Position numbers and translations under genes: made by a program
In this document: positions 2,670 through 44,711 of the stretch, in pieces
Layout: each line of letters begins with the position of its first letter
How positions within the stretch are numbered: the stretch's first letter is position 1
Notes under the pieces: model-generated
What the model was told of the DNA's origin: nothing
What the model saw: the letters and a program-made list of their open reading frames with translations, nothing else
The model's database searches: none
Assembly (NCBI GenBank): GCA_964437445.1
Contig: CAYTGR010000002.1
Coordinates: 52,406-116,405, forward strand
From: an uncultured Anaerolineales bacterium
Lineage (GTDB): Bacteria; Chloroflexota; Anaerolineae; B4-G1; SLSP01
Length of the DNA: 64,000 bases
Reading direction: 5' to 3'

Positions 2670-2767
2670 CATAGTAGTATTGGTGACCTAGGTGGGTAGA
2701 TAACGCAAATTGTCGTGGGGTCATAGGCCGGGGAAGACCATTGGGGGGATTATTATTGAAGGGTGAT

Positions 2768-4867
2768 ATGGCAAACTCAGACGATTCTGCCCAACGCAAC
2801 ATTCCACCTCAAGATCTGGGGACGCGCCAGATCCGGGGACTCTCGCAGCGTTTGCGCCGCCCGCTGACGCCGGAGGCCAATCTGCCGCCTGATGCCGCTC
2901 CGCCCGCGCCACCACCGGAGCCGGCGGAATCTGCTCCGCCGCTGGCTGAGGCAACTGTGCCGCCGGCTCCCCAACCGCCGCCGGCAGATTCTTCGCTGCA
3001 CACGCGCCCGGTCAGCTCACAGGCTAAACCGTCACGGGATGGCCTGTTGACTGAGGGGACGATCCTGCAATCGCGGTACAAGATCTTGGGGGTCATCGGA
3101 ATCGGTGGGATGGGGGCCGTGTACAAAGCCCAGGATTTGCGTTTTGCCAACGTGACTCGCATTTGCGCGGTCAAAGAGATGATCAACACGGCGACCGATC
3201 CGCAGGTGCGGCAGATGATCGTTCACAACTTTGAGCGGGAAGCCAGTATTCTGGCGACGCTCAGCCATCCGGCTATCCCGCAGGTCTACGATTTTTTCAC
3301 GGAGGGAGCGCGCAGCTACCTGGCGCTGGAGTTCATCAACGGCAAGGACCTGGAAGCCATCCTATCGGAGACGGAAGGATTTATCTCTGAAGTCCAGGTC
3401 ATTGACTGGGCGATCCAGTTGTGTGATGTTTTGATGTATTTGCACAGTCACAAGCCCCGGCCGATTATCTTCCGCGACTTGAAACCCTCCAATATCATGC
3501 TGGACGACCACGACCGGATCCGGTTGGTAGACTTTGGCATCGCCAAGCTTTTCCAGAGCGGGGAGCGAGGCACCATGATCGGGACGGAAGGGTATTCGCC
3601 CCCTGAGCAGTACCGGGGGATGGCCGAACCGCGCAACGACATCTATTCTTTGGGGGCGACACTCCACCATCTGTTGAGCAAACAGGACCCGCGTCTGGAG
3701 CCACCGTTTTCTTTCCATGAGCGGCCGATCCACAAGACCAATCCCACCGTCTCGCGGGAGCTGACCGAGATTGTGGAGAAGGCGCTGATGTACGACGTCA
3801 ACCAGCGCTGGGGCTCGGCCGATGAGATGAAACGGGCCTTGCTGACCCTCCCCGGTGCACGGGGGATCGCGGGCGGGGCTCCCAAAGAGACGGCGGCTTT
3901 CGCCGCGGGCAGTGTCAAGCCGCTCTGGCGCTTTGCCTGTGAGGACGAAATCCGGGTGGCGGTGGCTGTGTCAGAAGGGGTGGTCTATGTGCCCTCCTAT
4001 GACCACAATGTCTACGCTTTGGAAGCGTCTTCCGGCAAGTTCATGTGGAAGTATGCCACGGAAGGAGGCATTGCTTCCACTCCCTGGGTGCTGGAGGATT
4101 TTGTGGTCTTTGGCTCCACCGATACAGTAGTTTACGCCGTGGAAGCCCGGACCGGACGGTTAGTCTGGACTGCGCCCACCAAGGGGAAGATTTTCTCCTC
4201 GCCCTACGGTGAATTTGGGCACCTGTTTATCGGTTCAGATGATAGCAACTTGTATGCGATCCATGGGCCGAGCGGCCGGATCGCCTGGACCTATCATGCC
4301 GATGGGCAGGTCCGTACGCGCCCCATTCTACAGGAAAATATGATTTTCTTTGCCTGCCAGATGGGCATGGTCTACGCCTTGGGGCTTAACCGGGAGCTCA
4401 AATGGCGTTTCCACGCCCGGCGCGGGTTCCTGGCCGCCCCCACGCTGGGCAAAGGATTGGTTTTGATCGGTTCGCTGGACTGGAACCTGTATGCTCTGGA
4501 CCTGCGTTCCGGTTGGACGGCCTGGCGCTATCACACCGGTGGGTCCATCGTCTCCACGGCGGCCGTGGCTGAAAATCTGGTGTTGTTTGGCTCGGCCGAC
4601 AACTTCATTTATGCGTTGGATACAGCGGAGGGCCGGTTAGTCTGGCGCTATCAAACGGAGGGGCAGGTGACAGGCTCACCAGCCGTCTACGGGGAAAATG
4701 TCTATATCGGCGGGGTTGACGGATCGCTCTACTGTTTAGAGGTACGCACGGGGAAGCTGCGCTGGCGCTATCAGATGGGCGGCGCCATCACCGGGGCTCC
4801 GGTGATTGAAGACGGTGTGCTTTACATTGGCTCCAATGACCGTTACGTTTACGCTATTCCGGCCTGA
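2768..4867 (+). CDS. Hanks-type Ser/Thr kinase with C-terminal PQQ-like beta-propeller (AfsK-like architecture)
   Basis: GIGGMGAVY, AVKE, RDLKPSN, DFG and GTEGYSPPE motifs; repeated 'G..vW.y' propeller blades; Pro-rich N-terminus; no transmembrane helix seen. Confidence 0.93.
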   Translation: MANSDDSAQRNIPPQDLGTRQIRGLSQRLRRPLTPEANLPPDAAPPAPPPEPAESAPPLAEATVPPAPQPPPADSSLHTRPVSSQAKPSRDGLLTEGTILQSRYKILGVIGIGGMGAVYKAQDLRFANVTRICAVKEMINTATDPQVRQMIVHNFEREASILATLSHPAIPQVYDFFTEGARSYLALEFINGKDLEAILSETEGFISEVQVIDWAIQLCDVLMYLHSHKPRPIIFRDLKPSNIMLDDHDRIRLVDFGIAKLFQSGERGTMIGTEGYSPPEQYRGMAEPRNDIYSLGATLHHLLSKQDPRLEPPFSFHERPIHKTNPTVSRELTEIVEKALMYDVNQRWGSADEMKRALLTLPGARGIAGGAPKETAAFAAGSVKPLWRFACEDEIRVAVAVSEGVVYVPSYDHNVYALEASSGKFMWKYATEGGIASTPWVLEDFVVFGSTDTVVYAVEARTGRLVWTAPTKGKIFSSPYGEFGHLFIGSDDSNLYAIHGPSGRIAWTYHADGQVRTRPILQENMIFFACQMGMVYALGLNRELKWRFHARRGFLAAPTLGKGLVLIGSLDWNLYALDLRSGWTAWRYHTGGSIVSTAAVAENLVLFGSADNFIYALDTAEGRLVWRYQTEGQVTGSPAVYGENVYIGGVDGSLYCLEVRTGKLRWRYQMGGAITGAPVIEDGVLYIGSNDRYVYAIPA

Positions 4868-4887
4868 GCCAGTAAGGTGAACGAATC

Positions 4888-5835
4888 ATGCGACAGTGGA
4901 TTGGTTGGTTAAGTGATCGGCTGAGAGCCAGAGGGGCAGAATCCCCGGCCGATGTATCGGATACGCCCCCCTTGCCGGAATTCATGCCTGAATTAACGTT
5001 GGAAGAATCGGAAGAAAAAACTATGACAATGCCTCTACCACTTTCAAAACAGCCGGCTCATTTGATCAGGTTGGCCTGGAAGACCGACGTAGGACAATTG
5101 CGCAACCATAATGAGGATACCCTGGTTGTTTTTCTGGGCCAGCAGGAGGGGATGGTGCCCCTGGTCTCGTTTGGATTGTGCATTGTGGCCGATGGGATGG
5201 GAGGGCATCAGGCCGGTGAATTGGCCAGCGCGCTGGCCAGCCGTGTCGTGGCCAGCTATCTGCTGGAACATGTCTACCTTCCCTTGTTGCAGGAAGACGC
5301 CCCGGAACCCGAGCCGGATTCGTTGGCCGAGATGGTGCGGACGGCCATTGCCCAGGCCAATGACGCGGTCATTGAGACCTTCCCGGGCAGTGGCACAACC
5401 CTCACCAGCGCCCTGCTGTTGGGGGCCCATTTGTTGATTGGACATGTGGGTGACAGCCGGGCCTACCTGTTGCGGCCGGAGGATGGCCTCCAGCAGCTAA
5501 CCGCGGACCATTCATTGGTTTACCGGTTGGTGGAAATGGGGCAACTCAGCCCCGAGGAAGCGGGGGTACACCCGCAGCGTAACGTTCTGTACCAGGCAGT
5601 GGGCCAGGGAGCGCCATTGCAAGTGGATGTGATAGCGCAGACTTTGCAACCTGGCGAGCGGGTGCTCCTGTGCAGTGATGGACTGTGGGAGATGGTCAAC
5701 GATGCGACTATCCAGCGTCTCGTTGAGGAATCCTCCTCCATCCAGGCTGCCTGCGAGTCCCTGGTCGGTGCCGCCAACGAGGCCGGCGGCACCGATAACA
5801 TCACTGTGATGATGGCAGAACTAGCTGAGAGTTAG
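4888..5835 (+). CDS. PP2C/PPM family Ser/Thr phosphatase
   Basis: RNHNED, VADGMGGH, HVGDSRAY, LCSDGLW and GGTDNITV motifs. Confidence 0.93.
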   Translation: MRQWIGWLSDRLRARGAESPADVSDTPPLPEFMPELTLEESEEKTMTMPLPLSKQPAHLIRLAWKTDVGQLRNHNEDTLVVFLGQQEGMVPLVSFGLCIVADGMGGHQAGELASALASRVVASYLLEHVYLPLLQEDAPEPEPDSLAEMVRTAIAQANDAVIETFPGSGTTLTSALLLGAHLLIGHVGDSRAYLLRPEDGLQQLTADHSLVYRLVEMGQLSPEEAGVHPQRNVLYQAVGQGAPLQVDVIAQTLQPGERVLLCSDGLWEMVNDATIQRLVEESSSIQAACESLVGAANEAGGTDNITVMMAELAES

Positions 5836-5844
5836 GATTGTAAC

Positions 5845-7305
5845 ATGGGTGCGTTTGATCCAGAAAAAGATTATTACGCCGCTTTGGGCGTCCCTGTGGA
5901 GGCCAGTGAAGAGGAGATCAAAGTGGCCTACCGCGATCTGGCGCGCCGTTACCATCCAGATTCCGGTGGCGATGCGGAGCGCTTCCGCCAGATCCAAGAG
6001 GCCTATGAGATCTTGCGCGATCCCACTCTACATCGGGCTTACGACCGTCAACGCGAAAGCCGGGGATTGTCTCAGGAATCGCCCTTAGTAATAGGATTGA
6101 CCCTCAACCGGACCAACATGCAACCGCTGGAAGTCCCCCAGATGCTTTATGTGCTGGTGGATATCCGGCCGCGTGTGGATCTGCCGAGCCAACGGCTCCC
6201 GTTGAACTTGGCTTTGGTGATTGACCGCAGCACCTCTATGCAGGGAGTGCGGATGGAGAACGTGAAGCTGGCCGCCCTGGACCTGGTGGAGTCGTTGTTG
6301 CCCGGCGATCGTCTCTCGCTGGTGGCCTTCAGCGATCGGGCCGAGGTGATCGCTTCGGGGCTGTCGGTCAGCGATAAACGCGCTTTGCGCTCGGCCATTT
6401 CGGCCCTCATGCCCGGCGGCGGAACCGAGATCTGCCGCGGGTTGACGGCCGGCCTGGACGAGCTCCGCCGTTACGTCAGTGATCAATATCTCAACCACTT
6501 GATCTTGCTGACCGATGGGCGTACTTATGGGGATGAAGAGCAATCTTTGAGCGAGGTGCGGCGGGCCGGTGCCCAAAAGATCGGCATTTCCGCGTTAGGA
6601 ATTGGCGAGGACTGGAACGATCTTTTCCTGGATGCCCTGGCGCGTCAGGGGGGTGGAATCTGCCAGTATATCCGTTCACCCTCACAGGTGCGGCAGTTGT
6701 TGCGCGATCAAATCCGTGGCCTCAGTGCCGTGGTGGCCCGCCAGGTGCGATTGGTCATCAATCCTGCGCCCAATGTCAAAATCCAGGCGGCGTTCCGGGC
6801 GGCCCCTTACATGGAATATCTCACGCTGGAAAACGGTACGACGCTGAAGTTGGGCAACATGGGGGTGGATGAGCCGATTGCGTTAATCCTGGACCTGGTC
6901 GTCCAGCAGCCGGAACCGGGGGAGCGACGCCTGGCCCGGTTGGAATTGGAGGCCGCAACAGCCAACGACACTGCTGTGACACTTCAGTTGCGCCGGGATC
7001 TGGCGATGACCTTTTCTTACAGCGCCCAGGATGAGCCGGTCCCTGGTCGGTTGTTGAATATGCTGTCACGGTTGAGCATTTTCCGGCTACAAGAGCGGGC
7101 TTGGGAACTGGCGGAATCTGGCGACGTTCAGCAAGCGACGAATATGTTGCAAGCGGCGGCAACGCGGCTCTTTGACCTGGGTTACAAGGAATTGGCCCAG
7201 GTGGCATTGACCGAAGTGGGGCGGCTTTCTGCCGGGGGAGCCCCCACCTCGGAAGGTCGGAAGCGTGTACGCTATGGCACACGAAGTTTAACCAGTCCTG
7301 TTTAG
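5845..7305 (+). CDS. DnaJ-domain / vWA-domain fusion protein
   Basis: J domain (DYYAALGV...RYHPD); vWA MIDAS motifs DRSTS, GGT and LLTDG. Confidence 0.88.
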
Positions 7306-7317
7306 GAGGGGCGAAAA

Positions 7318-7845
7318 ATGCCTGACAAGAGTGTAAAAGTCATTTGTCCGTCTTGTGGTGCCGAGAATTTGACGGGTACGTTGTTTTGTGTGCAGTGTGG
7401 CATTTATCTACCCTTTGGTGGGCCGTTGCGGACGGAGCCGCTTCCGGAGCAGGGCCAGGGCCAGCGGCCGACGGCGACTGACCGGCGTACGGATACGCAG
7501 GAGGGGAAGGCCCTGAGTCTGGAGATGGAAATCCTGGATACCGGGCGTAAAGTTTGGTTGTCGGCCGAGCGCGAAATTTTGGTCGGCCGGCTGGATGCAG
7601 CGCATGGTATTTTCCCTGAGCTGGATTTGGGAGTAGACGGTGGGTTGGAGCACGGTGTCTCCCGCCGTCAGGCTCGCATTTATACCAAGGATGGGGTCTG
7701 TCTGTTGGAGGACCTGGATAGCACTAACGGCACTTTTCTCAACGGCGAGCGGTTGACCCCTTATTTGCCCTACACTTTGCACAACGAAGATGTTTTGACC
7801 TTCGGCACCATGCGCCTGAAGATCTATATTTACACCAGTAAATAG
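7318..7845 (+). CDS. Zinc-ribbon + FHA domain protein
   Basis: CPSCG...FCVQCG; FHA motifs VGR, VSRRQA and STNGTFLNG. Confidence 0.88.
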   Translation: MPDKSVKVICPSCGAENLTGTLFCVQCGIYLPFGGPLRTEPLPEQGQGQRPTATDRRTDTQEGKALSLEMEILDTGRKVWLSAEREILVGRLDAAHGIFPELDLGVDGGLEHGVSRRQARIYTKDGVCLLEDLDSTNGTFLNGERLTPYLPYTLHNEDVLTFGTMRLKIYIYTSK

Positions 7846-13129: not shown

Positions 13130-14467
13130 TCACTCCAACCCGTTCTGCCGGACGACCTCCGCGTACCACCGCCCGCTGTCTTTCATGATCCGGGCCTGAG
13201 TCTCGTAATCCACGTAGATCAGCCCAAAACGCATCTGGTAGCCGTAAGCCCACTCAAAGTTATCCAGCAGTGACCAGACGAAGTAGCCGCGCAAGGGGAC
13301 GCCGGCCTCCAATGCCCGATGGCATTGGGCGATGTGAGCGCGCAGGTAGCGGATGCGCCGTTCGTCGCGCACACGGCCGTCGGCGTCAGGCGCATCGGCC
13401 ACCGGGATGCCGTTCTCGGTGACGTAAAGCACCGCCGGCCGGTAGTCACGCCAGACGCGGGTCAGCATATGATACAGCCCTTCCGGGTAGATTTCCCACA
13501 TCTGCGAGTATTCATTGCCCACCGGCTGTACGGCTGAAGCCTGGATGACCGGGAACTCCGGGTCGTGGCGGATGACGTCGCGCGAGTAGTAGTTGACGCC
13601 CAGGAAATCCAGGGGGGCGGCGATGCGTTCCAGATCGCCGGGCTGGATAAGTCCCGCCCTGGTGCTCAATTGCGGCAGCATGGCCTCCGGATAAGCACCC
13701 CGGTAGAGCGGATCCAGGAAGAGCTGGTTGAGGGCCGCGTCAAAGCGGAACGCGGCGGCCTGGTCCAGTTCGCTCGCGCTGGCCGGTTGCACGTCGCTGA
13801 GATTGAGCGTGATGCCGACCTGGACGGGCCGGCGGGCGGCGGCGCGAATGGCGGCCACTGCCTCACCGTGGGCCAGCAGCAGATGGTGGACAGCGGCAAA
13901 GGCGGCTGCCGGCTCACGGCAGCCCGGCGCATGTTCGCCCGCGAAGTAGCCACCCATCGCCGCGACCCACGGCTCGTTGAGCGTGATCCAGTGCGTCACC
14001 CGGTCACTCAACCGTTCCGCGACGACGCGGGCATACTCCCCGAAGGCGAATGCCGTCTCGCGGACGGGCCAGCCCCCGCGCTCCTCCAGCGCTTGCGGCA
14101 GATCCCAGTGGTAGAGCGTGATGAAAGGCTCAATCCCCTTTTCCAATAGCGCATCCACCAGCCGGTCGTAGAAATCCAGCCCCGCCGGGTTGACCGGGCC
14201 GGTGCCGGTGGGGATGATCCGCGGCCAGGCGATGGAGAAGCGGTAGGCATTGAGCCCCAGTTCGGCCATCAGGGCCACATCTTCTTGCCAGCGGTGATAG
14301 TGGTCGGCGGCCACGTCACCGGTAGCGCCGTGGTAAGTCTTGCCCGGCGTGTGGCTGAAGGTGTCCCAGATCGAGAGCCCGCGCCCGTCTTCGTTCCAGG
14401 CGCCTTCAATCTGGTAGGCGGCGGTCGCCGTCCCCCAGCGGAAACCGATGGGAAAGGGATGGTTCAT
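13130..14467 (-). CDS. GH1 beta-glucosidase (paralog 1)
   Basis: ATAAYQIEG, AYRFSIAWPRI, acid/base TLNEP, nucleophile VTENG, DNFEWA. Start ATG 14467 after AAGGAGG. Confidence 0.95.
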   Translation of the reverse strand: MNHPFPIGFRWGTATAAYQIEGAWNEDGRGLSIWDTFSHTPGKTYHGATGDVAADHYHRWQEDVALMAELGLNAYRFSIAWPRIIPTGTGPVNPAGLDFYDRLVDALLEKGIEPFITLYHWDLPQALEERGGWPVRETAFAFGEYARVVAERLSDRVTHWITLNEPWVAAMGGYFAGEHAPGCREPAAAFAAVHHLLLAHGEAVAAIRAAARRPVQVGITLNLSDVQPASASELDQAAAFRFDAALNQLFLDPLYRGAYPEAMLPQLSTRAGLIQPGDLERIAAPLDFLGVNYYSRDVIRHDPEFPVIQASAVQPVGNEYSQMWEIYPEGLYHMLTRVWRDYRPAVLYVTENGIPVADAPDADGRVRDERRIRYLRAHIAQCHRALEAGVPLRGYFVWSLLDNFEWAYGYQMRFGLIYVDYETQARIMKDSGRWYAEVVRQNGLE

Positions 14468-14497
14468 GGATGTGTCCTCCTTGTCAAGATGTTTTAA

Positions 14498-14570
14498 GAG
14501 ACCACTGACCACGGACCACCGACCACTCCTGATTTCTGCGTGGTCTGCGGTCTGTCGTCTGTGGTCATTG
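14498..14570. repeat. Heptamer tandem/inverted array (GACCAC.)
   Basis: GACCACT GACCACG GACCACC GACCACT ... GTGGTCT GCGGTCT GTCGTCT GTGGTC. Confidence 0.8.
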
Positions 14571-14573
14571 CTG

Positions 14574-15080
14574 TCAAGTAGTGTATTTTGGGCCTTCATG
14601 CGTGGATGGCAAACCGACCAGGAACGCGGCCAGATGCTCCAACGCGGCCTGCGCCGAGGCGGCTTGATTGGCGGTGCGGTCGCCGCTCCAGAGGTGCCGC
14701 CAGACCCGCCGCTCGCCGGGAACCGCTAACCCGATGTAGACCAGCCCCACCGGTTTGAGCGGGGTCCCACCGCCCGGCCCGGCGAGGCCGGTGAGGCTCA
14801 CTCCCAGCGTGGCCCCGGTCAGCCGGCAAACCCCCACGGCCATCTCCAGCGCGGTCTGTGGGCTGACCGCGCCCCAGCGCTCTAAGGTCTCCGGGTGTAC
14901 CCCCAACAGCGTCAGCTTGACCGCGTTGGCGTAGGCAATCACGCCGCCGAGAAAATAAGCCGAGCTGCCGGCGACCGTGGTGAGCCGGTAGCCGAGCAAC
15001 CCGCCGGTGCAGGATTCGGCTACGGCCAGCTGCCAGCCGCGCGCGCGCAGCGTCTCACCGATTTGGGCTTCCAGGGTCAT
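14574..15080 (-). CDS. Stand-alone CinA C-terminal domain (NMN deamidase PncC-like)
   Basis: [37 protein letters not shown]...KPVGLVYI. Confidence 0.9.
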
Positions 15081-30687: not shown

Positions 30688-30791
30688 GTCGTGAAACGTG
30701 AAGCGTGAAACGTAAAACGTGATGCGTGAAGCGTGAAACGTAAAACGTGAAACGTAAAACGTGAGAAGAGTCACGTTTCACGTTTCACGTT
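30688..30791. repeat. Heptamer tandem/inverted array (CGTGAAA family)
   Basis: About 11 units CGTGAAA/CGTGAAG/CGTAAAA/CGTGATG, then inverted TCACGTT x3. Confidence 0.88.
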
Positions 30792-32897: not shown

Positions 32898-33194
32898 TTA
32901 AGGTTCTGAAATATCCGTTGGCTCCGAGGGGGGTGCGGTCTCCGGCGGCCTCTGCTTCATCCGGTTGGCCACCCGTTGCAGGACCCACCGGTAAACCATC
33001 ACCGGTCCCACGATCATCCCCACCAAAACCAGGAGCAAGGTGAAAAGCGGCAGGGTCTTCAAATGGGTGTCCACGATATAACCCAACGCCAGACCGAGCA
33101 GGACCGGGAAAACGAGCAGAAAGCCGGCCTGGCTGCCTACTGTCAGCCCCCAGGCCACGTCTCGCCATTGCTCATGCTGCGGTTCTTGCTGCAT
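32898..33194 (-). CDS. AtpZ/AtpI-family protein
   Basis: Two TM helices with LALGYIVD...PLFTLLLVLVG; first gene of the atp block. Confidence 0.8.
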   Translation of the reverse strand: MQQEPQHEQWRDVAWGLTVGSQAGFLLVFPVLLGLALGYIVDTHLKTLPLFTLLLVLVGMIVGPVMVYRWVLQRVANRMKQRPPETAPPSEPTDISEP

Positions 33195-33236: not shown

Positions 33237-33264
33237 ATTATAACATAACCTGCCGGGCAATCAA
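33237..33264 (-). promoter_or_regulatory. Extended -10 promoter of the atp block
   Basis: Minus strand TTGATT, 16 nt ending in TGT, then TATAAT (33237-33242). Confidence 0.55.
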
Positions 33265-34736
33265 CCGGCGAAAAAGAGCTGCGCCGCAGATTCCAGCCAG
33301 GGCAGGACCAGGCTGGGGAACAATCCTACCAGCAGCACCGCGCCTAAGGTTAGACCCAGGGCAATTTTCAACAGCGGTGGGGTCTCCAGCTTGTCCTCCC
33401 GGATCATGGGGGCCAGATAGAGGGCCTGGATCACTTTCCAGTAGTAGCCGACTGAGATGACGCTGTTGATGACGCCCAACACGGCCAGCCAGACCAGGCC
33501 GCTTTCTATGGCGGCGGAGAAGAGCCAGAGCTTGCCCATGAAACCGGCGGTGCCCGGAATCCCGGCCAGCGAGAGCAGGCAGATGGTCAGCACGGCCGCC
33601 AGCAGAGCCGCCCGTTTGTGGCCGCCGGCGTAGCTGGCGATCAGCTCGCTGCCGGTCTGGTTGGCAAAGGCGATGATGGCGGCAAAGGCGCCCAGGTTGG
33701 TGAGGGCATAGGCGACCAGGTAGAAAAGCACAGCGGTCACGCCCCGGCTGGTGGCAACCGCCACGCCGATCAGGATGTAGCCCGCTTGCGCGATGCTGGA
33801 GTAGGCCATCAGCCGTTTGATGTTTTCCTGGCCCAACGCGGCCAGGTTGCCCACCACCATCGCAAACGCCGAGAGGAAGGTCAGCAGCGGCCAGCGCAGA
33901 TCGCTGCCTAAGGTCAGGACGCCGGGGAAGAGCACCAGCACCACGCGCACCAACAGGGCGAAGCCGGCAATTTTGGGCGCGACCGAGAGAAAAGCCGTGA
34001 CCGGGGTGGGGGCCCCTTCGTAAGCATCTGGCGCCCAGTGGTGGAAAGGAGCGGCGGCCACTTTGTAGGCCAGCCCGGCCAGGATCAGGATCAGGATGGG
34101 GACCAGCGCCAGGGGCGAGATGAATTGCTCAATCATGCGGAGACTGGCTGCAATCCAGAGCAGGTCGGTGCTGCCGGTCAGCCCATAGAGCCAGGAGAAG
34201 CCATAGAGCATGACCGCCGAGAGCGTCGCCCCGTAGATGAAGTACTTAAAAGCGGCCTCGGTGCCGTATTTGTCGTGGCGCAGGTAGCCGGTGAGCAGGT
34301 AAGAGAGGATGCTCAGCAGGTCAAACAGCAGGAAGATGGTAATGAGCTCGGTAGCGGCCCCCAGCAGGCTGATGGAGAGCGCGGCCAGCAGTAGCAGGGC
34401 ATAGAAGAGCGCCGGCTGGTCGGTATGCGCGCGCAGGTAATCCTCGGAGACCAGCACCAGCAGCGTCATCGTCACCCAGGTGATGGCCTTGATGCAGACG
34501 GCAAACAGGTCCAGCTGAAAGACCGCCAGCACTCGCTCCGTTTGCTGTCCCAGCGTCACCGTGGCGACCAGCGCTAAGGTCAGCCCGGCCAGCGAGACAT
34601 AGGGCAGCCAGTGCTGGACCCGCTGGTGTTCAACCAGGTCCAGGCCCAGCAGGAGGAGCGCCGTGGCCAGGACGATCAGCTCGGGCGAGAGGTACCAGGC
34701 GATGGCTCCCCAATTGAGCAGTGTATCCCCATACAA
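33261..34736 (-). CDS. nuoN: NADH-quinone oxidoreductase subunit N
   Basis: EAAFKYF.YG, YKVAAAPFHHWAPDAYEGAPTP, KRLMAYSSIAQAGY, SLAGIP.TAGF.GK and YYWK. Confidence 0.95.
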   Translation of the reverse strand: MYGDTLLNWGAIAWYLSPELIVLATALLLLGLDLVEHQRVQHWLPYVSLAGLTLALVATVTLGQQTERVLAVFQLDLFAVCIKAITWVTMTLLVLVSEDYLRAHTDQPALFYALLLLAALSISLLGAATELITIFLLFDLLSILSYLLTGYLRHDKYGTEAAFKYFIYGATLSAVMLYGFSWLYGLTGSTDLLWIAASLRMIEQFISPLALVPILILILAGLAYKVAAAPFHHWAPDAYEGAPTPVTAFLSVAPKIAGFALLVRVVLVLFPGVLTLGSDLRWPLLTFLSAFAMVVGNLAALGQENIKRLMAYSSIAQAGYILIGVAVATSRGVTAVLFYLVAYALTNLGAFAAIIAFANQTGSELIASYAGGHKRAALLAAVLTICLLSLAGIPGTAGFMGKLWLFSAAIESGLVWLAVLGVINSVISVGYYWKVIQALYLAPMIREDKLETPPLLKIALGLTLGAVLLVGLFPSLVLPWLESAAQLFFAG

Positions 34737-34748
34737 GGTTTACCTCCC

Positions 34749-36278
34749 TTAAGGCAGCGCTCGCAACAACGTGGTCATAGCCGCATTGAACATTTGCAGC
34801 AAGGGGGTGGGATAGAAGCCCAGGAAGACCATGCCCAGGACGAGCGGCCAGAGGGTCACTTTTTCCCACCAGGTCATGTCAGGCAGCTGGCCCCAGCGCT
34901 CTTTATCCAGGGTGCCCAGGAAGACGTATTGCACGATTTTCCAGAGAATGTAGCCGGCGGTGAAGACCATGCCCAGGACGCCGATGAAGGCCGCGGCCGG
35001 GATGAAATAGACGGTGCCCCGGAAGACGAAGAGCTCGCTCCAGAAGCCGGCCAGCCCCGGCAGCCCCAACGACGCGAAGCCGGTGACCATCGTGATCCCG
35101 TAGTAGTAGGGGACCTGCGAGGCCAGCCCGCCGAAGGCTTTGATCTCGCGGGTGTGCGCCCGCTCGTAGATGATGCCGACCAGGAAAAACAGCGCGCCCG
35201 TGATGAGACCGTGGGCGAACATCTGCATCGCGGCCCCGTTCAGGCCCGAAGCGGCGGCGCTCAGCGCGTTCTCCGGTTGCAGGTTGGGATACCCGGCGGC
35301 AGCCGAAGCGATCCCCAACGTGACGTATCCCATGTGTGCCACTGAGGAATAGGCGATCAGCCGTTTGAGGTCCCACTGGGCCATGCAGACCAGCGCACCG
35401 TAGACGATGCTGACGACCGCCAGGACCGGGATAATCGGGACATCCACCACGTAGTAGTGGAACTGCTGCGGGAAAAGCGGCAGGGCGATGCGGATCAGCC
35501 CGTAGGCGCCCAACTTCAGCAGGATGCCCGCCAGGATGACGCTGCCGGCGGTCGGCGCTTCGGTGTGCGCATCCGGCAACCAGGTATGGAAGGGGAAGGA
35601 GGGCACTTTGATGGCAAAGGCGATGAAGAAGGCCCAGAAGGCCATGCTGGCCCAGGTGAAGTTATGGGCAAACGGCTGCGCCTTAGCCGCTTCCAGGATG
35701 TTGAAGGTGCCGGTCTGGAAGTAGACGCTCAGGATCGCCAGCAGCATGAAGACGCTACCGGCCAGCGTATACAGGAAGAACTTGATGGCCGCGTATTCCC
35801 GCCGTTTGCCGCCCCAGACGCCGATGAGCAGGAACATGGGGACCAGGCCGATCTCCCAGAACAGGTAGAACAGCACCAGGTCCAGCGCCATGAAGACGCC
35901 CATCATCCCCAGTTCCAGCAGCAGGAAGAGGAAGAAGTATTCCTTGACCCGTAGCTTGATGACATAGGACGAGTAGAACAGGGAGAGCGTGGTCAGCAGG
36001 CCGGTCAGGAAGATCATGGGGGCGCTCAACCCATCGGCGGCTACTTCGTACCAGATGTGGAAAGAGGGAATCCAGGCGTAACGTTCGGTCAGCTGCATGG
36101 TCTCGGCGCCCTGTTGGGCGACCAGCCACCAGATGAGAGCCCCCTGCACCAGCGTGATGAAGGCAAAAGCCGTGCCGATGCGCCGGATGGTCTTCTCATC
36201 CTCGCGTGGGATAATCAACACGAGCAGGGCTCCCACCAATGGAGTAAACAGGGTGACGCTCAAAATTGGAAAATTCAT
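34749..36278 (-). CDS. nuoM: NADH-quinone oxidoreductase subunit M
   Basis: FWEIGLVPM, IKVP.FPFHTWLPDAHTEAPT, LLKLGAYG, KRLIAYSS.AHMG and GLPGLAGFWSE. Confidence 0.95.
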   Translation of the reverse strand: MNFPILSVTLFTPLVGALLVLIIPREDEKTIRRIGTAFAFITLVQGALIWWLVAQQGAETMQLTERYAWIPSFHIWYEVAADGLSAPMIFLTGLLTTLSLFYSSYVIKLRVKEYFFLFLLLELGMMGVFMALDLVLFYLFWEIGLVPMFLLIGVWGGKRREYAAIKFFLYTLAGSVFMLLAILSVYFQTGTFNILEAAKAQPFAHNFTWASMAFWAFFIAFAIKVPSFPFHTWLPDAHTEAPTAGSVILAGILLKLGAYGLIRIALPLFPQQFHYYVVDVPIIPVLAVVSIVYGALVCMAQWDLKRLIAYSSVAHMGYVTLGIASAAAGYPNLQPENALSAAASGLNGAAMQMFAHGLITGALFFLVGIIYERAHTREIKAFGGLASQVPYYYGITMVTGFASLGLPGLAGFWSELFVFRGTVYFIPAAAFIGVLGMVFTAGYILWKIVQYVFLGTLDKERWGQLPDMTWWEKVTLWPLVLGMVFLGFYPTPLLQMFNAAMTTLLRALP

Positions 36279-36294
36279 ACCTGCGCTCCTCAAA

Positions 36295-38535
36295 TCAGAT
36301 TTGACGGAATAAGATGACAATGACAATCAACACGACAATCATCATGATTGCGTTCCAGAGATAATCCTGGATCAGGCCGGTCTGCATCTCGCGCATCCGG
36401 CGGCCCAACGAACGGGTCAAGTCGGCGGTGGCGTTGACCAGGCCGTCCACGATTTTCTCATCAATCACGTTGCCCAGCCAGGAGAGGAACCGGCCCAGCA
36501 TCCCGGCAGCATTGACCAGACCGTCCACAATCGTGGCATCCAGCCAGTTGAACAGCGTCGAGAGTCCTCGCACCAGGCGCGGCACAAAGTTGACCACGCC
36601 ATCCACGACGGTGCGGTCAAACCAGGCGCTCAGCTCCGAGGCCCGCAGCGCCAACCAGACAAACGTGTGCTGGTAGAGCCAGTCAAAATAGAAGCGTTCG
36701 CGCATGGCATCATACAGCCAGCCCAGGTAAAGCGCGCGCAGTGCCCGCTCCAACCGGTCCGGTTCGCCGGCCACCATCGGCTTCCACCCGTAGACCAGAT
36801 AGCCCAACAGCAGGCCGCCCAGGGCGGCAGTCAGCCCGGCCGCCAGTGGCTGCCAGACGAAAGCCGCCGGCTCGGAAGCGGCGGCCAGGCCGGCCGCGAG
36901 CCGCCCGATTTCATGCCCCCCTTCCAGTGTGGAGCCGACAAAGTGGTGGAACCAGTTGGGCAGCAGCCCGCCCAGCACCGGGAAATGCTCCGGGATGCCG
37001 GCCCAGCCTAAGGTGACCGAGAAGAAGGCCAGAATCATGAGCGGGACGGTCATGGAGGGGACACTTTCGGGCACGTGGGCCGCTGCCTCGGTGCGCGGCT
37101 CGCCCAGGAAGGTGAGGCTGATCTGCCGCATGGTGTAGAAAGCGGTCAGACCGGCGGCCACGGCCAGCACCCAGAAGATCGTGGGGTTGAGCTCCCAGGC
37201 CTGCGCCAGAATCTCATCCTTAGACCAGAAGCCGGCGGTGAAGAGCGGGAAGCCGGCCAGCGCCAGCCCGCCGATGAGGAAAGTCCAGAAGGTGCGGGGC
37301 ATTCGCCGGGCCAACCCGCCCATGTTCATCATGTCGTTGGGATTGAAGGGCGCGGCGGGATGGTGCTCCTCCTCGCCATGCCCGGCGTGCCCGTGCTCGT
37401 GAGCGTGGTGGTGGCCGTGTTCCATCCCGTGGATGACCGACCCAGAGCCGAGGAAGAGCAGGGCCTTGAAGAAAGCGTGCGTGATGAGGTGGAAAGCGCC
37501 GGCCACGTAAGCGCCCATTCCCAGCGCGGCGACCATGTAACCCAGCTGGCTGATGGTGGAGAAGGCCAGCACCCGCTTGATGTCGTTCTGGGCCAGGGCG
37601 ATCACGGCGGAGAAGATGGCGGTGAAAGCTCCAATCCAGGCCACCGTGGTCAGCTGGATGCCGCCCGGCACGGCGCTCAGCAGCGGGAAGGTGCGCACCA
37701 CCAGATAGACGCCAGCCGAGACCATCGTCGCGGCGTGGATCAACGCCGAGACCGGGGTCGGGCCTTCCATCGCGTCGGGCAGCCAGACGTGCAGCGGGAA
37801 CTGCGCGCTCTTGCCCACCGTCCCGCCGAAGATCAGCAGCGCGATCACCGTCGCATACGAGAGCGGCGTCCCCAGGAAGGGCGTCGTCGCCAGATGGTGC
37901 AGGACTTCGGCGCTGAAGACTTCGCGGTAAGAGAGCGTGCCGACTTCAGCATACAGGACCACCAGCCCCAACATCAGGAAGAGGTCGCCGACTTTGGTGA
38001 CCAGGAAAGCTTTCAGCCCGGCGTTGAAGGCCGATTTCTTCTCGTACCAGAAGCCGATCAGGAGGTAGGAGCAGGTGCCCATGATCTCCCAGAACAGGAA
38101 GAGCGTCAGCAGGCTGTTGAAGACGACCATGCCCAACATCGCCATCGCAAAAAGCGAAATGTAGGCGAAGAAGCGGCTGTAGCGCGGGTCGCCGTGCATG
38201 TAGCCCACGCTGTAAATAAAGATCATCAGACAGACCAGCGGCACCATGAAGAGCATGATGGTGCTGGCCGGGTCAATATAAATCCCCACGCCCAGGTTGA
38301 GCGTGCCGGCCGGCAGCCAGGACTCCAGCACCGACTCAAACGCCTGCTCGCCCCCGCCGACCGGCAACGTCACCGCCCGCCAGAAGACCAGTTGCGCCAG
38401 CAAGAAGGCGATGGCAATGCCGGCAATGGCGACCGTGTGGCTCAGCTTGCGGTTGGCGCCGGTGAAGAGCGCAATCGCCACAAATGCCAGAAAGGGAAAA
38501 AGCGGAATCAGCCAGGCCAGTTGCAAAAGCTCCAT
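36295..38535 (-). CDS. nuoL: NADH-quinone oxidoreductase subunit L with extended lateral helix and His-rich loop
   Basis: FWEIMG, GKSAQFPLHVWLPDAMEGPTPVSALIHAATMV, HAFFKALLF and FWSKDEI. Three D..(I/V)VDG.VN repeats before QTG. Confidence 0.95.
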   Translation of the reverse strand: MELLQLAWLIPLFPFLAFVAIALFTGANRKLSHTVAIAGIAIAFLLAQLVFWRAVTLPVGGGEQAFESVLESWLPAGTLNLGVGIYIDPASTIMLFMVPLVCLMIFIYSVGYMHGDPRYSRFFAYISLFAMAMLGMVVFNSLLTLFLFWEIMGTCSYLLIGFWYEKKSAFNAGLKAFLVTKVGDLFLMLGLVVLYAEVGTLSYREVFSAEVLHHLATTPFLGTPLSYATVIALLIFGGTVGKSAQFPLHVWLPDAMEGPTPVSALIHAATMVSAGVYLVVRTFPLLSAVPGGIQLTTVAWIGAFTAIFSAVIALAQNDIKRVLAFSTISQLGYMVAALGMGAYVAGAFHLITHAFFKALLFLGSGSVIHGMEHGHHHAHEHGHAGHGEEEHHPAAPFNPNDMMNMGGLARRMPRTFWTFLIGGLALAGFPLFTAGFWSKDEILAQAWELNPTIFWVLAVAAGLTAFYTMRQISLTFLGEPRTEAAAHVPESVPSMTVPLMILAFFSVTLGWAGIPEHFPVLGGLLPNWFHHFVGSTLEGGHEIGRLAAGLAAASEPAAFVWQPLAAGLTAALGGLLLGYLVYGWKPMVAGEPDRLERALRALYLGWLYDAMRERFYFDWLYQHTFVWLALRASELSAWFDRTVVDGVVNFVPRLVRGLSTLFNWLDATIVDGLVNAAGMLGRFLSWLGNVIDEKIVDGLVNATADLTRSLGRRMREMQTGLIQDYLWNAIMMIVVLIVIVILFRQI
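36400..36630 (-). repeat. Intragenic 78-bp tandem repeat x3 in nuoL
   Basis: GTTGACCAGGCCGTCCACGAT (36433), ATTGACCAGACCGTCCACAAT (36511) and GTTGACCACGCCATCCACGAC (36589); exact 78-nt period. Confidence 0.9.
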
Positions 38536-38543
38536 CGCTTCCC

Positions 38544-38852
38544 TCAACCCTTGAGCAATTTCATCTTATCGGTCAACACCACCTCGCGGTTGCGCCAGAT
38601 GGCGATGATCAGGGCCAGGCCCACGCCGGTCTCCGCGGCGGCTAAAGCGAAGACGAACAGGGTGAACGTCTGCCCTACCACCGCGCCCGCTTCCAGGTAG
38701 CGCGCTAAGGCGACCAGATTGAGATTGACCGCGTTGAGCATCAGCTCCAGCGACATCAACACCGCCACCACATGCCGCCGGGCCAGCACACCGTAAAGTC
38801 CAATGGCAAATAAGACCGCTGCCAGAATCAAATACCAGCTCAGAGGCACCAT
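38544..38852 (-). CDS. nuoK: NADH-quinone oxidoreductase subunit K
   Basis: LFAIGLYG, LMSLELMLNAVNLN and LAAAE.GVGLAL (both conserved Glu); ends LKG. Confidence 0.96.
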   Translation of the reverse strand: MVPLSWYLILAAVLFAIGLYGVLARRHVVAVLMSLELMLNAVNLNLVALARYLEAGAVVGQTFTLFVFALAAAETGVGLALIIAIWRNREVVLTDKMKLLKG

Positions 38853-39362
38853 TTAGCGCTCCTTTGCGATATAAATGGCTCCTAACAGAACCACCAGCAA
38901 GAGCAAAGAGGTGATTTCAAAGGGGGCGACGAACTTGCCGGGGTCCACTAAAGCCTGCCCCAAGGCCAGGAGATTATCCTGCGCCGGGTGTAACGGCTCT
39001 TTCGGCCAGGGGATTTGCACGATCATCCAGACCACCCCGGCCAGGACTAACAGCGCTGTTACCAGGGCGGTCAGCGGCTCGTTGACACTCTTTTCGGTCG
39101 GGTGCATCACCTGCCGCGAGACCATGATGACCATGACGATCAGGACGGCGATGCCGCCGATGTAGATGAAAAGCTGGAGGCCGGCGATGAAAGGGGCCTC
39201 CAGCAGCATGTAAAGCGCGGCCAGGCCGAAGAGGGCCAGCACCAGCCAGAGGGCGGTGTGGAAGAGATTGCGGCTGGTGACGACGCAAATGGCCGCACCC
39301 ACCGTCAAAGCGGCAAAAATGGCGAACAGCACGGTTTGCACGGTGATAGGTATGGCCGTCAT
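38853..39362 (-). CDS. nuoJ: NADH-quinone oxidoreductase subunit J
   Basis: NLFHTALWL, LQLFIYIGGIAVL and PFEITSLLLLVVLLGAI. Confidence 0.94.
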   Translation of the reverse strand: MTAIPITVQTVLFAIFAALTVGAAICVVTSRNLFHTALWLVLALFGLAALYMLLEAPFIAGLQLFIYIGGIAVLIVMVIMVSRQVMHPTEKSVNEPLTALVTALLVLAGVVWMIVQIPWPKEPLHPAQDNLLALGQALVDPGKFVAPFEITSLLLLVVLLGAIYIAKER

Positions 39363-40606
39363 CCTGCGTTCTCCCCTTCTGGGCTGGTGAGATTGAGTGT
39401 GGCGAACCGCCGGGCTGCTAAGCGGCGCTGTTGGCGCTTCCCTGCCAGATAGAGCAGGCCATAGGTGCCTAAAGCGATCAGGACATTGGTCAGGAAGAGC
39501 AGGCCCGCCTGGCCCCAGGCCGAGGTGATCCCCGCATCCCGGATCAGCCGGTCGGCAATGGCGATGACTACCACTGTGACCAGCGCCAATGGCGTCAGGA
39601 ACTTCCAGTTGAAGTTCAAGATGTGGTCAATCCGCATCCGGGGCATGGCGGCCCAGAAGGCAAAGAGCACGGTGACGACGATCATCGTCTTGAGCATGAG
39701 CCAGAAGATGCCCAGGATGGGGACGGCTTCCACGCCGGGGCCGCGCCAGCCGCTCCAGAAAAGCATCACAAAGATGAGCGCCACGGTGAAGTTGTTGATG
39801 AACTCGCCCAGATAGAAAGCGCCGAACATCATGCCGCTGTACTCGGTCTGGTAGCCGGCCACGATTTCCGCGTCGGCCTCGGCCAGCTCAAAGGGCAGCC
39901 GCCCGATTTCGGCGGTGATGGCGAGGAAGAAGATCAGCGCCGGGATCGGCAGCGCGATGAAGAACGGCACGCTTTGGGCTTGAATCAGGCCTTGCATGGA
40001 GAGCGTGCCGGCCAGCATCACCGGGGCCAGCAGGGATAACATCTGCGGAATCTCGTAGCTGATGAGCAGTGAGGCCGCGCGGAAGGCCCCCACATCGGCG
40101 TATTTGTTCCGGGAGCTCCACCCGCCCATCAACATGGTGAACAGGCTGGCCGAGGAGATCGCCAGGATGTAGAAGATGCCGATGTTGAGATCCACCCCCT
40201 GCATCCCGTTTGGCCCGAAGGGGAGCACCGCCCAGACCGCCAGGGACATGGCTACCATCAGGACCGGCGCCAGGACGAAGACCACCACGTCGGCCCCTTC
40301 CGGGATGATCAGCTCTTTGGTGAGGATTTTGATGGCGTCGGCAAACGATTGCAACAGCCCGTAAGGGCCGTTGAAGACGCCGGAGTTGTTGGGGCCGATC
40401 CGGTCCTGGATGCGGGCGACGATCTTGCGGGCATACCAGATGAAAAACAGGGTGGCCAGCAAAGGGATAGTTGCCAGAATCAGCCCGCCGAGGATGCGCA
40501 GGATGAGGGCCGCCCAGAACGGGGTCAGCCTCCAGCCCAACAGCAGGTCGTTCAACCAGGCCCCGGCGTTGACAAAGAAGTCCGCAATGAAAGCCCAAAA
40601 GGTCAT
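39359..40606 (-). CDS. nuoH: NADH-quinone oxidoreductase subunit H
   Basis: RKIVARIQDR.GPN, GLLQSFADAIK...KE, ISYEIP, RLPFELAEADAE.VAGY.TEYSG and PRMRID. Confidence 0.95.
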   Translation of the reverse strand: MTFWAFIADFFVNAGAWLNDLLLGWRLTPFWAALILRILGGLILATIPLLATLFFIWYARKIVARIQDRIGPNNSGVFNGPYGLLQSFADAIKILTKELIIPEGADVVVFVLAPVLMVAMSLAVWAVLPFGPNGMQGVDLNIGIFYILAISSASLFTMLMGGWSSRNKYADVGAFRAASLLISYEIPQMLSLLAPVMLAGTLSMQGLIQAQSVPFFIALPIPALIFFLAITAEIGRLPFELAEADAEIVAGYQTEYSGMMFGAFYLGEFINNFTVALIFVMLFWSGWRGPGVEAVPILGIFWLMLKTMIVVTVLFAFWAAMPRMRIDHILNFNWKFLTPLALVTVVVIAIADRLIRDAGITSAWGQAGLLFLTNVLIALGTYGLLYLAGKRQQRRLAARRFATLNLTSPEGENAG

Positions 40607-40642
40607 CTTACCTCCTGGAATTCAGACGGGGTGCGGAGGGAC

Positions 40643-40999
40643 TTACATCCACTCCAGATCGCCTTTGAGCCAGACGTAGACCAGCCCGGCGACCAGCAAC
40701 AACAGAAATAGGACCGCTTCCAAGATGGCGTAAAGGGGCAGCTGGCGGTAGGCAATCGCCCAGGGCAGCAACAGCGCTGCTTCCACGTCAAAGACCAGGA
40801 AGGCAATGGCAAACAGATAGAATTGGGGCTTGAAGCGGATCCAGGTCTCGCCAAACGTTTTGATCCCCGACTCGTAAATCTGTTGTTTGCGGGCGCTGAG
40901 CTTTTTAGGGCTGAGCAACCAGGCCAGTACAATAGGGGCGGCGCCAAAGAAAAGTGCAATCAGCAGAAAAATCCCAATGTAGGCATATTCGCTGACCAA
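40643..40999 (-). CDS. nuoA: NADH-quinone oxidoreductase subunit A
   Basis: IYESG, FYLFAIAFLVFDVEAALLLPWA and KGDLEW. TTG start at 40999 after AGGAGG. Confidence 0.94.
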   Translation of the reverse strand: MVSEYAYIGIFLLIALFFGAAPIVLAWLLSPKKLSARKQQIYESGIKTFGETWIRFKPQFYLFAIAFLVFDVEAALLLPWAIAYRQLPLYAILEAVLFLLLLVAGLVYVWLKGDLEWM

Positions 41000-41045
41000 G
41001 AGGACCTCCTGCCATCCAGAGAATGGGATACGGAATAACGGCAAA

Positions 41046-41073
41046 ATTATAACACGGTCTGGGATAAGGACAA
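41046..41073 (-). promoter_or_regulatory. Sigma70-type promoter of the nuo operon
   Basis: Minus strand TTGTCC, 16 nt ending in TGT, then TATAAT; about 45 nt upstream of nuoA. Confidence 0.65.
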
Positions 41074-41081
41074 CTTTCCCA

Positions 41082-42599
41082 TCAAGGAGCTTTGGCCCGC
41101 CGGTAGAGCTTTTGGAACTCCGCCAGATAGCGCTGGGCGAGCTCCGGGCTGCGCATGACCAGGGCGAGCTCGTCTTCATCCGGCGGCAGGTCTTCGGCGC
41201 CGTGGAAGAAGCCGGTGATGGTGATGGCTTCATCCACTATGATGACCTGAGGGGCCTGTCCGGCCAGCCCCTCGGCCAGCCGTACATCCAGCCCGGCCTT
41301 TTGCCAGCCGGCCCAGGCTGCTGCTTGCTGGCGGACCAGGGCCGCATCCAGGATGGCCTGCACCGCCAGCCCGGCCTTCTGCTTTTTCTGGAGGATGGCC
41401 TGCAGGGTGTTGTCGGCGGGGGCGAAACCGGCGCAGCGCAGGCTGGTTTTAGCGCCCTTGAGGAGCGGCAAGAGCGGCAACAGCACATCCTCTTCCGGTG
41501 CGGCGTACAGGTCCAGTTGTAGCTCGCCCACCTTGAGCGCCAGATGGGGGCGCGCGGGGGCACGGCCGGTGCGCTTCTCAAACAGGGTGTTGAACCGGGT
41601 GACGTGGGAGCCAACCAGATCGGGTGCTGTGAACACCAGCGCGCCGGTGCGCTGGCGGTAGGTGCTCTGCACGGTGAACTCCCAGGCGCCGGTCCACAGC
41701 TGCTTCTGGTCAAGGATGACCAGGCTGGCGGGCTTGAGCAGCTCCGGGGCGATTTCTGCCACCGGCACGCCCGCCGCTTTCAGCGCCTTGAGGGGGGGCC
41801 GGCTCAGGGCGGCGGTCGTGGTCAGCAGCCGGACTTTGACGCCGCGCTGGTGTGCGCGGAGCAGCGCCTCGGCCAGCCGGGGCAGGTCCGGCGCGGCGGC
41901 AGCCAGGTCCACGCTGGTTTTGGTGGTATCCAGCGCAGCGACCAGCAGCTCTTCCAGACCGCCCTTCTCCTCCTGGCCGGGGAGGCTCAGGTGAAGCTGG
42001 AGCTGGACCGCCCCGTCTTTATACTTGAAGGTGTGGAGCTGCGCCGGCCCGCTGGCCACGGCCGGGGCCGGAGCCGGTTTGGGCTGACCGGCTGGCTTGG
42101 GGGCGGCGGCTGCCGGGTGGGATTGGCCGGCCGGCCGGGGGGATGGCGTGCCGGAGGTGGTCGTGGCGGGTTTGGCGGGTTGCTGAGCGGCCGGTGAGCT
42201 GGGGGTTGGGCGGGGAGCGGCGGCCGGTTGGGCCGCGACGTGACTTTTGCAGACGCCGCGTTGCTCATCAAAATCCTTCAGGCAGACAATCTTGCTGCAG
42301 GTGGGGCACTGGCGGAATTGCTGGCTGACCGTGGCCCAGGCCAGATTGACCTGGGGGACGGTCAGGACCGCCGGGCGCAGCAGCTCCGATTGGGAGACGT
42401 TTTGGGCGGCGGTGCTGCCCAGCACTTTGCCCAGCAGGCTGCTGATGGCCTGCTCGCCCAATTCCTGAACGGCGCTGCTGATAGCGTCCGGCGCGGTGCG
42501 CGTGCCCTGACCGCACAGTTCGCAGAAGAAGACGACATAAGGGCCGGCGCCATCGTTCTGCACTTTGTAAGGGGGTAGGCGGGTGGGGGTTGTGCTCAT
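41082..42599 (-). CDS. Cys-rich N-terminal domain + Pro-rich linker + two degenerate PLD-like domains
   Basis: FCELCG and CPTCSKIVC. PLD-like folds SVDLAA..LPRLAEALLRAHQRGVKVRL / VILDQKQLWTGAW.FT and LRCAGF / VIIVDEAITITG, both lacking HxKxxxxD. Confidence 0.7.
   Translation of the reverse strand: MSTTPTRLPPYKVQNDGAGPYVVFFCELCGQGTRTAPDAISSAVQELGEQAISSLLGKVLGSTAAQNVSQSELLRPAVLTVPQVNLAWATVSQQFRQCPTCSKIVCLKDFDEQRGVCKSHVAAQPAAAPRPTPSSPAAQQPAKPATTTSGTPSPRPAGQSHPAAAAPKPAGQPKPAPAPAVASGPAQLHTFKYKDGAVQLQLHLSLPGQEEKGGLEELLVAALDTTKTSVDLAAAAPDLPRLAEALLRAHQRGVKVRLLTTTAALSRPPLKALKAAGVPVAEIAPELLKPASLVILDQKQLWTGAWEFTVQSTYRQRTGALVFTAPDLVGSHVTRFNTLFEKRTGRAPARPHLALKVGELQLDLYAAPEEDVLLPLLPLLKGAKTSLRCAGFAPADNTLQAILQKKQKAGLAVQAILDAALVRQQAAAWAGWQKAGLDVRLAEGLAGQAPQVIIVDEAITITGFFHGAEDLPPDEDELALVMRSPELAQRYLAEFQKLYRRAKAP

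Positions 42600-43346: not shown

Positions 43347-43348
<2 letters not shown>
43290..43348. repeat. Heptamer tandem/inverted array (TGCTCAC/GTGAGCA)
   Basis: GTGAGCA GAGAGCA then TGCTCAC TGCTCAC ... TGCTCAC TGCTT. Confidence 0.65.

Positions 43349-44711
<1,363 letters not shown>

Follow-up and report, generated by a model that had tools for sequence, protein, structure and literature searches.

An intact operon for the membrane arm of complex I, with an extended NuoL lateral helix, in an uncultured Anaerolineales bacterium

We analysed a group of complex I genes in a 64,000-nucleotide stretch (hereafter, the window) of contig CAYTGR010000002.1, from an uncultured Anaerolineales bacterium. Seven consecutive complex I genes lie on the minus strand at 33261-40999, in the order nuoA-H-J-K-L-M-N, and this locus is an intact operon for the membrane half of complex I only. 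The genes were identified from a listing of open reading frames (ORFs) and from Pfam and NCBIfam scans, in which none of the seven core families of the membrane arm (NuoA, H, J, K, L, M and N) was missing. We consider it probable that the operon encodes the membrane arm of a complex I-type, redox-driven proton pump and that the hydrophilic subunits are encoded at another locus. Its order is normal for the lineage. The unusual part of this otherwise ordinary locus is the extended lateral helix (HL) of NuoL. The genes of the operon are the following (aa, amino acids; nt, nucleotides):

40643-40999, minus strand: nuoA, 118 aa, TTG start 7 nt after GGAGG; PF00507, E=7.5e-32; the gene call is identical on a JGI contig described below
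39359-40606, minus strand: nuoH, 415 aa; PF00146, E=3.8e-98; NF004741, 305 bits
38853-39362, minus strand: nuoJ, 169 aa; PF00499
38544-38852, minus strand: nuoK, 102 aa; PF00420 and NF004322
36295-38535, minus strand: nuoL, 746 aa from the ATG at 38535 (the ORF has 750 aa if counted from the TTG at 38547); NF005141, 624 bits; TIGR01974
34749-36278, minus strand: nuoM, 509 aa, the sole nuoM of the operon; TIGR01972, 554 bits
33261-34736, minus strand: nuoN, 491 aa; TIGR01770, 371 bits

The seven genes are tightly coupled. Thirty-six nt separate nuoA from nuoH, nuoH and nuoJ overlap by 4 nt (ATGA), and the remaining distances are 0 nt (J to K), 8 nt (K to L), 16 nt (L to M) and 12 nt (M to N). 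A GGAGG-like ribosome-binding site precedes every nuo start. Given these tight junctions, there is no room for nuoB, nuoC, nuoD or nuoI inside the operon. Nor did Escherichia coli K-12 NuoB, NuoCD, NuoE, NuoF, NuoG or NuoI give a tblastn match anywhere in the window (E<1e-5), and Pfam scans of its remaining ORFs returned unrelated genes, with no nuoB, C, D, I, E, F or G. The flanks that are free of genes for the peripheral arm (the Q module) measure ~23 kb on the nuoA side and 33 kb on the nuoN side. The first-pass annotation of this DNA, made from the sequence alone, had described a membrane-arm-only operon with no room for nuoBCD or nuoI; the junctions are as it claimed, and both searches agree with it.

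Next, key residues were mapped through an alignment of each subunit to its E. coli counterpart, to which the window membrane subunits are 33-43% identical. Both membrane glutamates of NuoK (E36 and E72) are kept, as are E144, K234, K265 and E407 of NuoM, E144, D178, K229, K342, K399 and D400 of NuoL, and D79 and E81 of NuoA. NuoN keeps K217, K247 and K395, with D in place of E133. NuoH keeps R37, D63, E157, R209, E216, E220, E228, E241 and K274, and its E-channel residues and the acidic loop between transmembrane helices (TM) 5 and 6 are conserved. Two further NuoH residues are replaced conservatively (E218 by D and D213 by E), while the replacement of E36 by A is the sole exception to the pattern that the mapped essential residues are conserved or conservatively replaced. 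None of the seven genes contains an internal stop. Thus, the assertion at first pass that the key charged residues are intact and that the genes show no decay was confirmed. Since the essential residues are kept, the operon is under selection and no remnant, and its sequence indicates that it is functional and non-decaying. NuoH also carries a C-terminal extension of ~65 aa relative to E. coli. Its distance to the ND1/NuoH chains of all solved complex I structures is the same (E about 1e-52); the PDB holds no Chloroflexota complex I.

The locus is not a product of misassembly. The exact NuoH of the window is also encoded on JGI contig Ga0248168_1003333 (L001 in our numbering of loci), which is 14.5 kb long and belongs to a separate assembly. 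Its gene order, nuoA-H-J-K-L-M-N-atpZ-atpB-atpE-atpF-murE, matches that of the window. Because the same proteins occur in the same order on an independent contig, an assembly break is excluded, including one at the A/H or H/J junction, where the first-pass annotation had placed the risk.

The same order was found throughout the relatives. A NuoH scan of one genome per GTDB species returned 17 loci, from metagenome-assembled genomes (MAGs) labelled Anaerolineae or Anaerolineales (two Chloroflexia), with NuoH identities of 55-67%. The order A-H-J-K-L-M-N was present in 17/17 loci as far as each contig reaches, and the 10 kb on either side of nuoH gave no match to NuoB, CD, E, F or G in any of them. 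The contexts of L020 and L021 have the same nuo arrangement as the 17. The nearest relative in the genome scan, L002 (NuoH 67%), has two nuoM genes and is a true 2M locus. The identity of the subunits across many MAGs is 42-78%. The 120 best NuoL homologues in a collection of 5.8 billion proteins are 706-908 aa long, and their organism names, wherever given, are Anaerolineae/Anaerolineales or Chloroflexi/Chloroflexota only. In conclusion, nuoA-H-J-K-L-M-N is the normal, conserved order of the Anaerolineae lineage. A survey of this order in Chloroflexota had been proposed at first pass, together with the view that the locus is an unusual stand-alone module. The survey gave conservation in every Anaerolineae locus, and the view of an unusual module found no support: the order is typical and already published.

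The arrangement has been described before, in Chloroflexi and, separately, in marine actinomycetes, and its novelty is low. In Chloroflexi complex I, nuoBCDI has been described as lying apart from the membrane genes, with nuoCD fused (Chadwick et al. 2018, ISME J, in the summary given by PMC7117926), and in the Chloroflexi MAG of McGonigle et al. (2020) nuoBCDI lay on a separate contig (PMC7117926). Salinispora, Streptomyces and Kocuria carry a partial nuoAHJKLMN in addition to a full nuo operon (Penn & Jensen 2012, as relayed in PMC6676996), and "split" nuo operons are a recognised category (PMC4758237). The finding is a further example of a known gene arrangement and leaves the understanding of complex I unchanged.

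In the mechanism that we favour, NuoH, NuoA, NuoJ and NuoK would form the quinone-tunnel and E-channel part of the arm, and NuoL, NuoM and NuoN its antiporter-like part. NuoB, a fused NuoCD and NuoI, with or without NuoE, NuoF and NuoG, would be transcribed from another locus, and these hydrophilic subunits would assemble onto NuoH and NuoA after translation. To our knowledge, NuoH and NuoA occur only as partners of NuoD and NuoB homologues. Because of this, and because the coupling residues are kept, a module of the NuoB/CD/I type is expected to dock onto the arm, and we infer that its genes are located elsewhere in the genome. The separately encoded peripheral arm envisaged at first pass is therefore supported, NuoH and NuoA having no known role when a NuoB/NuoD-type module is absent. 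Cyanobacterial and chloroplast NDH-1 is similar in that its genes are scattered over several loci and the products come together after translation; there, however, the cyanobacterial split (ndhCKJ, ndhAIGE, ndhF/D/B) does not coincide with the membrane/soluble boundary.

The Q module was approached through NuoCD. E. coli NuoCD was taken to the protein collection, where 50%-identity representatives yielded 59 fused NuoCD, and a profile built from 26 unnamed fused NuoCD representatives then led to a clade of ~30 fused NuoCD proteins. The top match of this clade is annotated "[Anaerolineae bacterium]". All fused nuoCD contexts found in this Anaerolineae-like clade were canonical-type nuo operons, with no isolated B-CD-I. 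Two of the operons are complete through nuoL/M, namely L029, with nuoA-B-CD-EF-G-H-I-J-K-L(628 aa)-M, and L119, with nuoA-B-CD-E-F-G-H-I-J-K-L(628 aa)-M, while L023, L027, L031, L032, L033, L116 and L117 are partial views. The canonical 14-subunit nuoA-N operons (E. coli and Thermus thermophilus, and here L029 and L119) share with the window seven membrane subunits that are orthologous in family and identical in their key residues; in contrast to them, the window locus lacks B, CD, E, F, G and I, and its NuoL is ~120 aa longer. Two contexts outside the NuoCD clade, those of P0487 and P0427, were ordinary 14- and 11-subunit operons. Some canonical-type operons of the Anaerolineae-like clade (L023, L027 and L029) have a fused nuoE-nuoF gene of 626-640 aa, and small HicB-, HNH- or TumE-type genes lie between nuo genes in L027 (13787-14020) and L119 (9254-9977 and 13568-14255).

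Both operon types were found together on one 25-kb contig, L032 (ENA ERZ27247707 k141_1190633). At its start are NuoM and NuoN, 67% and 48% identical to those of the window, which are values typical within the AHJKLMN group. Then follows murE, whose product is 61% identical to MurE of the window, a synteny shared with the window and L021. After a further 6.7 kb a second operon begins, nuoA'-B-CD-E-F. The right half of the contig recurs in L116 and L117, two independent assemblies, which counts against a chimera. Thus, at least one relative has a membrane-arm operon of the window type plus a canonical-type operon with its own nuoA. According to the first-pass annotation, a single ordinary nuoBCD(EFG)I cluster elsewhere, with a congruent phylogeny, would make the locus a simple split operon. 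Such clusters are known from the Chloroflexi literature and from the canonical-type operons of relatives, in L032 on the same contig.

Since the fused-nuoCD operons are of canonical type and L032 carries both types, we prefer the version in which AHJKLMN would encode a second, paralogous membrane arm comparable to that of Salinispora and Streptomyces. The window operon may thus be a second arm of this kind and not half of a single-copy operon. The partner of such an arm would come either from a small nuoB-CD-I cluster dedicated to it or from the canonical operon, as its Q/N modules, and L032 suggests the latter. The actinomycete partial operon has the same seven genes in the same order and lacks B, C, D, I, E, F and G. 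It sits beside a complete nuo operon, for which L032 is the only Anaerolineae parallel. It belongs to another phylum, and its second-copy status was established genome-wide, whereas ours comes from one relative. We know of no report of an extended NuoL helix for the actinomycete partial operon. The question common to both phyla is which hydrophilic module the orphan NuoAHJKLMN docks, and why a second membrane arm is kept.

Several observations weigh against a second arm served from another locus. In the DNA of the source organism itself, of which the window is the part covered, no Q-module gene was seen. The co-occurrence of both operon types is known from one metagenome contig, L032, and L116 and L117 share its murE...nuoA' neighbourhood but lack nuoM-nuoN. 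No cluster of B-CD-I only was present among 80 metagenome loci or 12 context loci. The AHJKLMN-type NuoH and that of the canonical-type operon in L023 share only ~37% identity, so that one Q module shared between two arms is not self-evident. Finally, the HL of the window is two 26-residue units longer than L-M-N need, an excess of which the simple model gives no account. Other searches with NuoCD were negative within their scope. In a metagenome scan with the NuoCD clade, the best 80 of at least 600 matches belonged for the most part to other taxa with canonical operons, and none came from sample 3300022666, the sample of the window. A tblastn search of PLSDB with E. coli NuoCD gave no Chloroflexota plasmid among 60 of 251 matching records. 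Among 20 fused NuoCD representatives, four had organism names (Eisenbacteria, Limnochordaceae, Binatia and Planctomycetota), none of them Chloroflexi.

A simple split of a single-copy complex I would consist of this operon and one nuoB-nuoCD-nuoI cluster elsewhere, with no second full nuo operon. We regard it as possible but doubtful. It matches the literature description of the Chloroflexi arrangement, and the order is conserved in every relative. It is also favoured by L116 and L117, in which a canonical-type operon without nuoM-nuoN lies beside murE, as the operon types then need not always co-occur. The lack of a B-CD-I-only cluster among the loci surveyed speaks against this split as well, as does the presence of both operon types on L032, and the "separate nuoBCDI" of the published account could belong to a canonical operon on another contig.

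The HL of NuoL is the feature that the preferred explanation, a second membrane arm with its hydrophilic subunits encoded elsewhere, does not account for. Its repeated part is located as follows:

36388-36621, minus strand: three tandem 26-residue HL units, NuoL residues 643-720 of the 750-aa ORF

The units read FDRTVVDGVVNF..., LDATIVDGLVNA... and IDEKIVDGLVNA.... Pairwise, they are identical at 9-13/26 positions, and the observed score was reached in 0/20000 shuffles; no tandem repeat was found beneath them at the DNA level. The window HL is ~55 residues longer than that of E. coli. In canonical-type NuoL of the Anaerolineae-like clade (L029 and L119) one unit is recognisable, and the E. coli helix has the same length as the canonical one. 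In the AlphaFold2 model of NuoL (mean predicted local distance difference test score 87), residues 594-718 are helical and are followed by a transmembrane helix at 723-745 (the anchoring TM16), with confidence dropping over the last HL units.

Across 87 homologues, the length of the HL region steps by 26 residues (85, 111, 137, 163 and 215). The 2M locus L002 has two units and other relatives have four or five, the span among relatives being 2-5 or more. According to a published rule, one 26-residue insertion in the NuoL HL accommodates one extra NuoM (as quoted in PMC9040806 and PMC6606698). The rule fits L002. However, this 2M locus has the shortest HL of the group, so unit number and nuoM count do not go together: there are two extra units in the window, and the window and most relatives combine two to four with a single nuoM. 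Chloroflexi 2M complexes, as described in secondary quotations, resemble the window in having a nuoA-H-J-K-L-(M)-M-N operon without nuoB, fused nuoCD or nuoI and in having 26-residue insertions in the NuoL HL. The window has one nuoM where they have two, yet two extra HL units where they have one. That HL lengthens in quantised steps while no nuoM genes are added to match is a concrete anomaly that can be tested. If HL length does set the number of pumping modules, unusual H+/e- stoichiometries would follow. NuoL also has a His-rich loop, GMEHGHHHAHEHGHAGHGEEEHH..., at residues ~373-405 (window ~37330-37430, minus strand). Anaerolineae homologues also have a His-rich stretch at this place, which AlphaFold models with low confidence.

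A more speculative proposal, which we think rather improbable, would give the extra units a function. AHJKLMN would be an alternative, exchangeable membrane arm, and the HL, lengthened in 26-residue steps (two extra here and one to six in relatives), would hold antiporter modules beyond those that the operon encodes, whether multiple NuoM copies or subunits encoded elsewhere, or would span the entire arm and so stabilise a self-assembling module. The arm would dock a canonical Q/N module or, in one subclade, an Hdr-polyferredoxin module.

The Hdr genes also raise the idea that the arm docks a non-Nuo electron-input module, such as an Hdr-like flavoprotein with a polyferredoxin, a hydrogenase or a formate dehydrogenase. 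Directly upstream of nuoA and on the same strand, hdrA (with an FlpD/MvhD domain)-hdrC-hdrB-polyferredoxin (344 aa) adjoins the operon in 11 (L007-L010, L012, L013, L015-L018 and L020; e.g., L009 4079-9230, plus strand) of the 13 relatives with at least 2.7 kb upstream of nuoA. HdrA is 78-95% identical among these relatives, and in L020 the hdr operon is preceded by an aldehyde:ferredoxin oxidoreductase and a ferredoxin. This neighbourhood leans slightly towards the alternative arm suggested at first pass, and complex I relatives without NuoEFG are known to use other donors (PMC4453560). However, the hdr cluster is missing from the window, L002 and L005, and a PLD-like gene stands upstream of nuoA here. 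An Hdr with a polyferredoxin cannot substitute for the NuoB/NuoD quinone site that the NuoH cavity residues imply. No hydrogenase large or small subunit and no formate dehydrogenase gene lies beside any locus, and the hydrogenase- or formate dehydrogenase-type arm considered interchangeable at first pass has no support; group 4 hydrogenase genes were likewise not found there. Unlike group 4 [NiFe] hydrogenases and complexes of the formate hydrogenlyase type, the window gave no NuoD/NuoB-like match, and neither did the 10 kb on either side of nuoH in the 17 relatives. A non-Nuo partner is therefore very unlikely.

Still less credible is a redox-independent, Mrp-like cation/proton antiporter made of complex I membrane subunits. 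NuoL, M, N and K have homologues in MrpA, D and C, and neither an Mrp (Mnh/Pha) operon nor this one includes a redox module. In addition, it has been suggested that the partial nuoAHJKLMN operon of actinomycetes acts as an ion pump in marine adaptation (PMC6676996). Mrp, however, lacks NuoH, NuoA and a NuoJ proper and has MrpB/E/F/G, while the window shows the reverse, with the coupling residues of NuoH and NuoA conserved. The best NCBIfam matches are NuoL, NuoM and NuoN models, and both Mrp and hydrogenase-4 models score far below Nuo models on the operon proteins. An Mrp antiporter was therefore rejected. A pseudogene cluster, decaying remnant or assembly artefact can be dismissed, given the intact genes and residues, the 42-78% identity across MAGs noted above and the identical independent contig.

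Three elements resembling transcription signals were found in and around the operon:

41046-41073, minus strand: sigma-70-like promoter match TTGTCC-16-(TG)TATAAT, extended -10, 10/12 matches; a consensus match only
33237-33264, minus strand: second promoter-like match, TTGATT-16-(TG)TATAAT, within the 66 nt that separate nuoN from atpZ; a consensus match only
30744-30791, minus strand: terminator-like hairpin with a 20-bp stem and a T-rich tail, between atpF and murE

The first site (41073-41046) lies between nuoA and the PLD-domain gene upstream, whose stop codon it directly follows. A promoter had been claimed directly upstream of nuoA; the position stands, and the site itself is a consensus match, in a region of 11 kb that has 5 such sites vs 2.6+/-1.6 in shuffles. 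The hairpin has a perfect-looking stem made of repeated ACGTGAA units and is the strongest terminator-like element of the region.

Directly downstream of nuoN are the membrane and stator genes of ATP synthase (atpZ, a, c and b), followed by the hairpin and murE:

32898-33194, minus strand: atpZ/I-like; PF09527
31894-32796, minus strand: atpB (subunit a); PF00119
31617-31868, minus strand: atpE (subunit c); PF00137
30823-31590, minus strand: atpF (subunit b with an OSCP-like C-terminus); PF00430 and PF00213

The nuoN-atp linkage occurs in the same order in L001, L002, L004 and L005. No F1 gene (alpha, gamma, beta or epsilon) was found in the window, so that complex I and ATP synthase are both represented in it by membrane parts. 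The atpF product has 255 aa, with PF00430 at residues 14-143 and the C-terminal part only of PF00213 (profile positions 102-171); from these domain matches, it looks like a b-delta-like fusion or chimera.

On the other side of the operon, the gene upstream of nuoA (41082-42599, minus strand) encodes 505 aa, in which a long Pro/Ala-rich linker joins Cys-rich, zinc-ribbon-like N-terminal motifs to a PLD-like domain (PF13091); relatives do not have this gene conserved upstream of nuoA. A signalling cluster at 2741-7845 (plus strand) comprises genes for a Ser/Thr kinase with a fused PQQ-type beta-propeller, for a PP2C phosphatase and for two further proteins, one of the DnaJ-VWA and one of the zinc-ribbon-FHA type. 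Two paralogous family-1 glycoside hydrolase genes, at 13130-14599 and 43347-44699 (both minus strand), lie 29 kb apart and flank the nuo/atp region.

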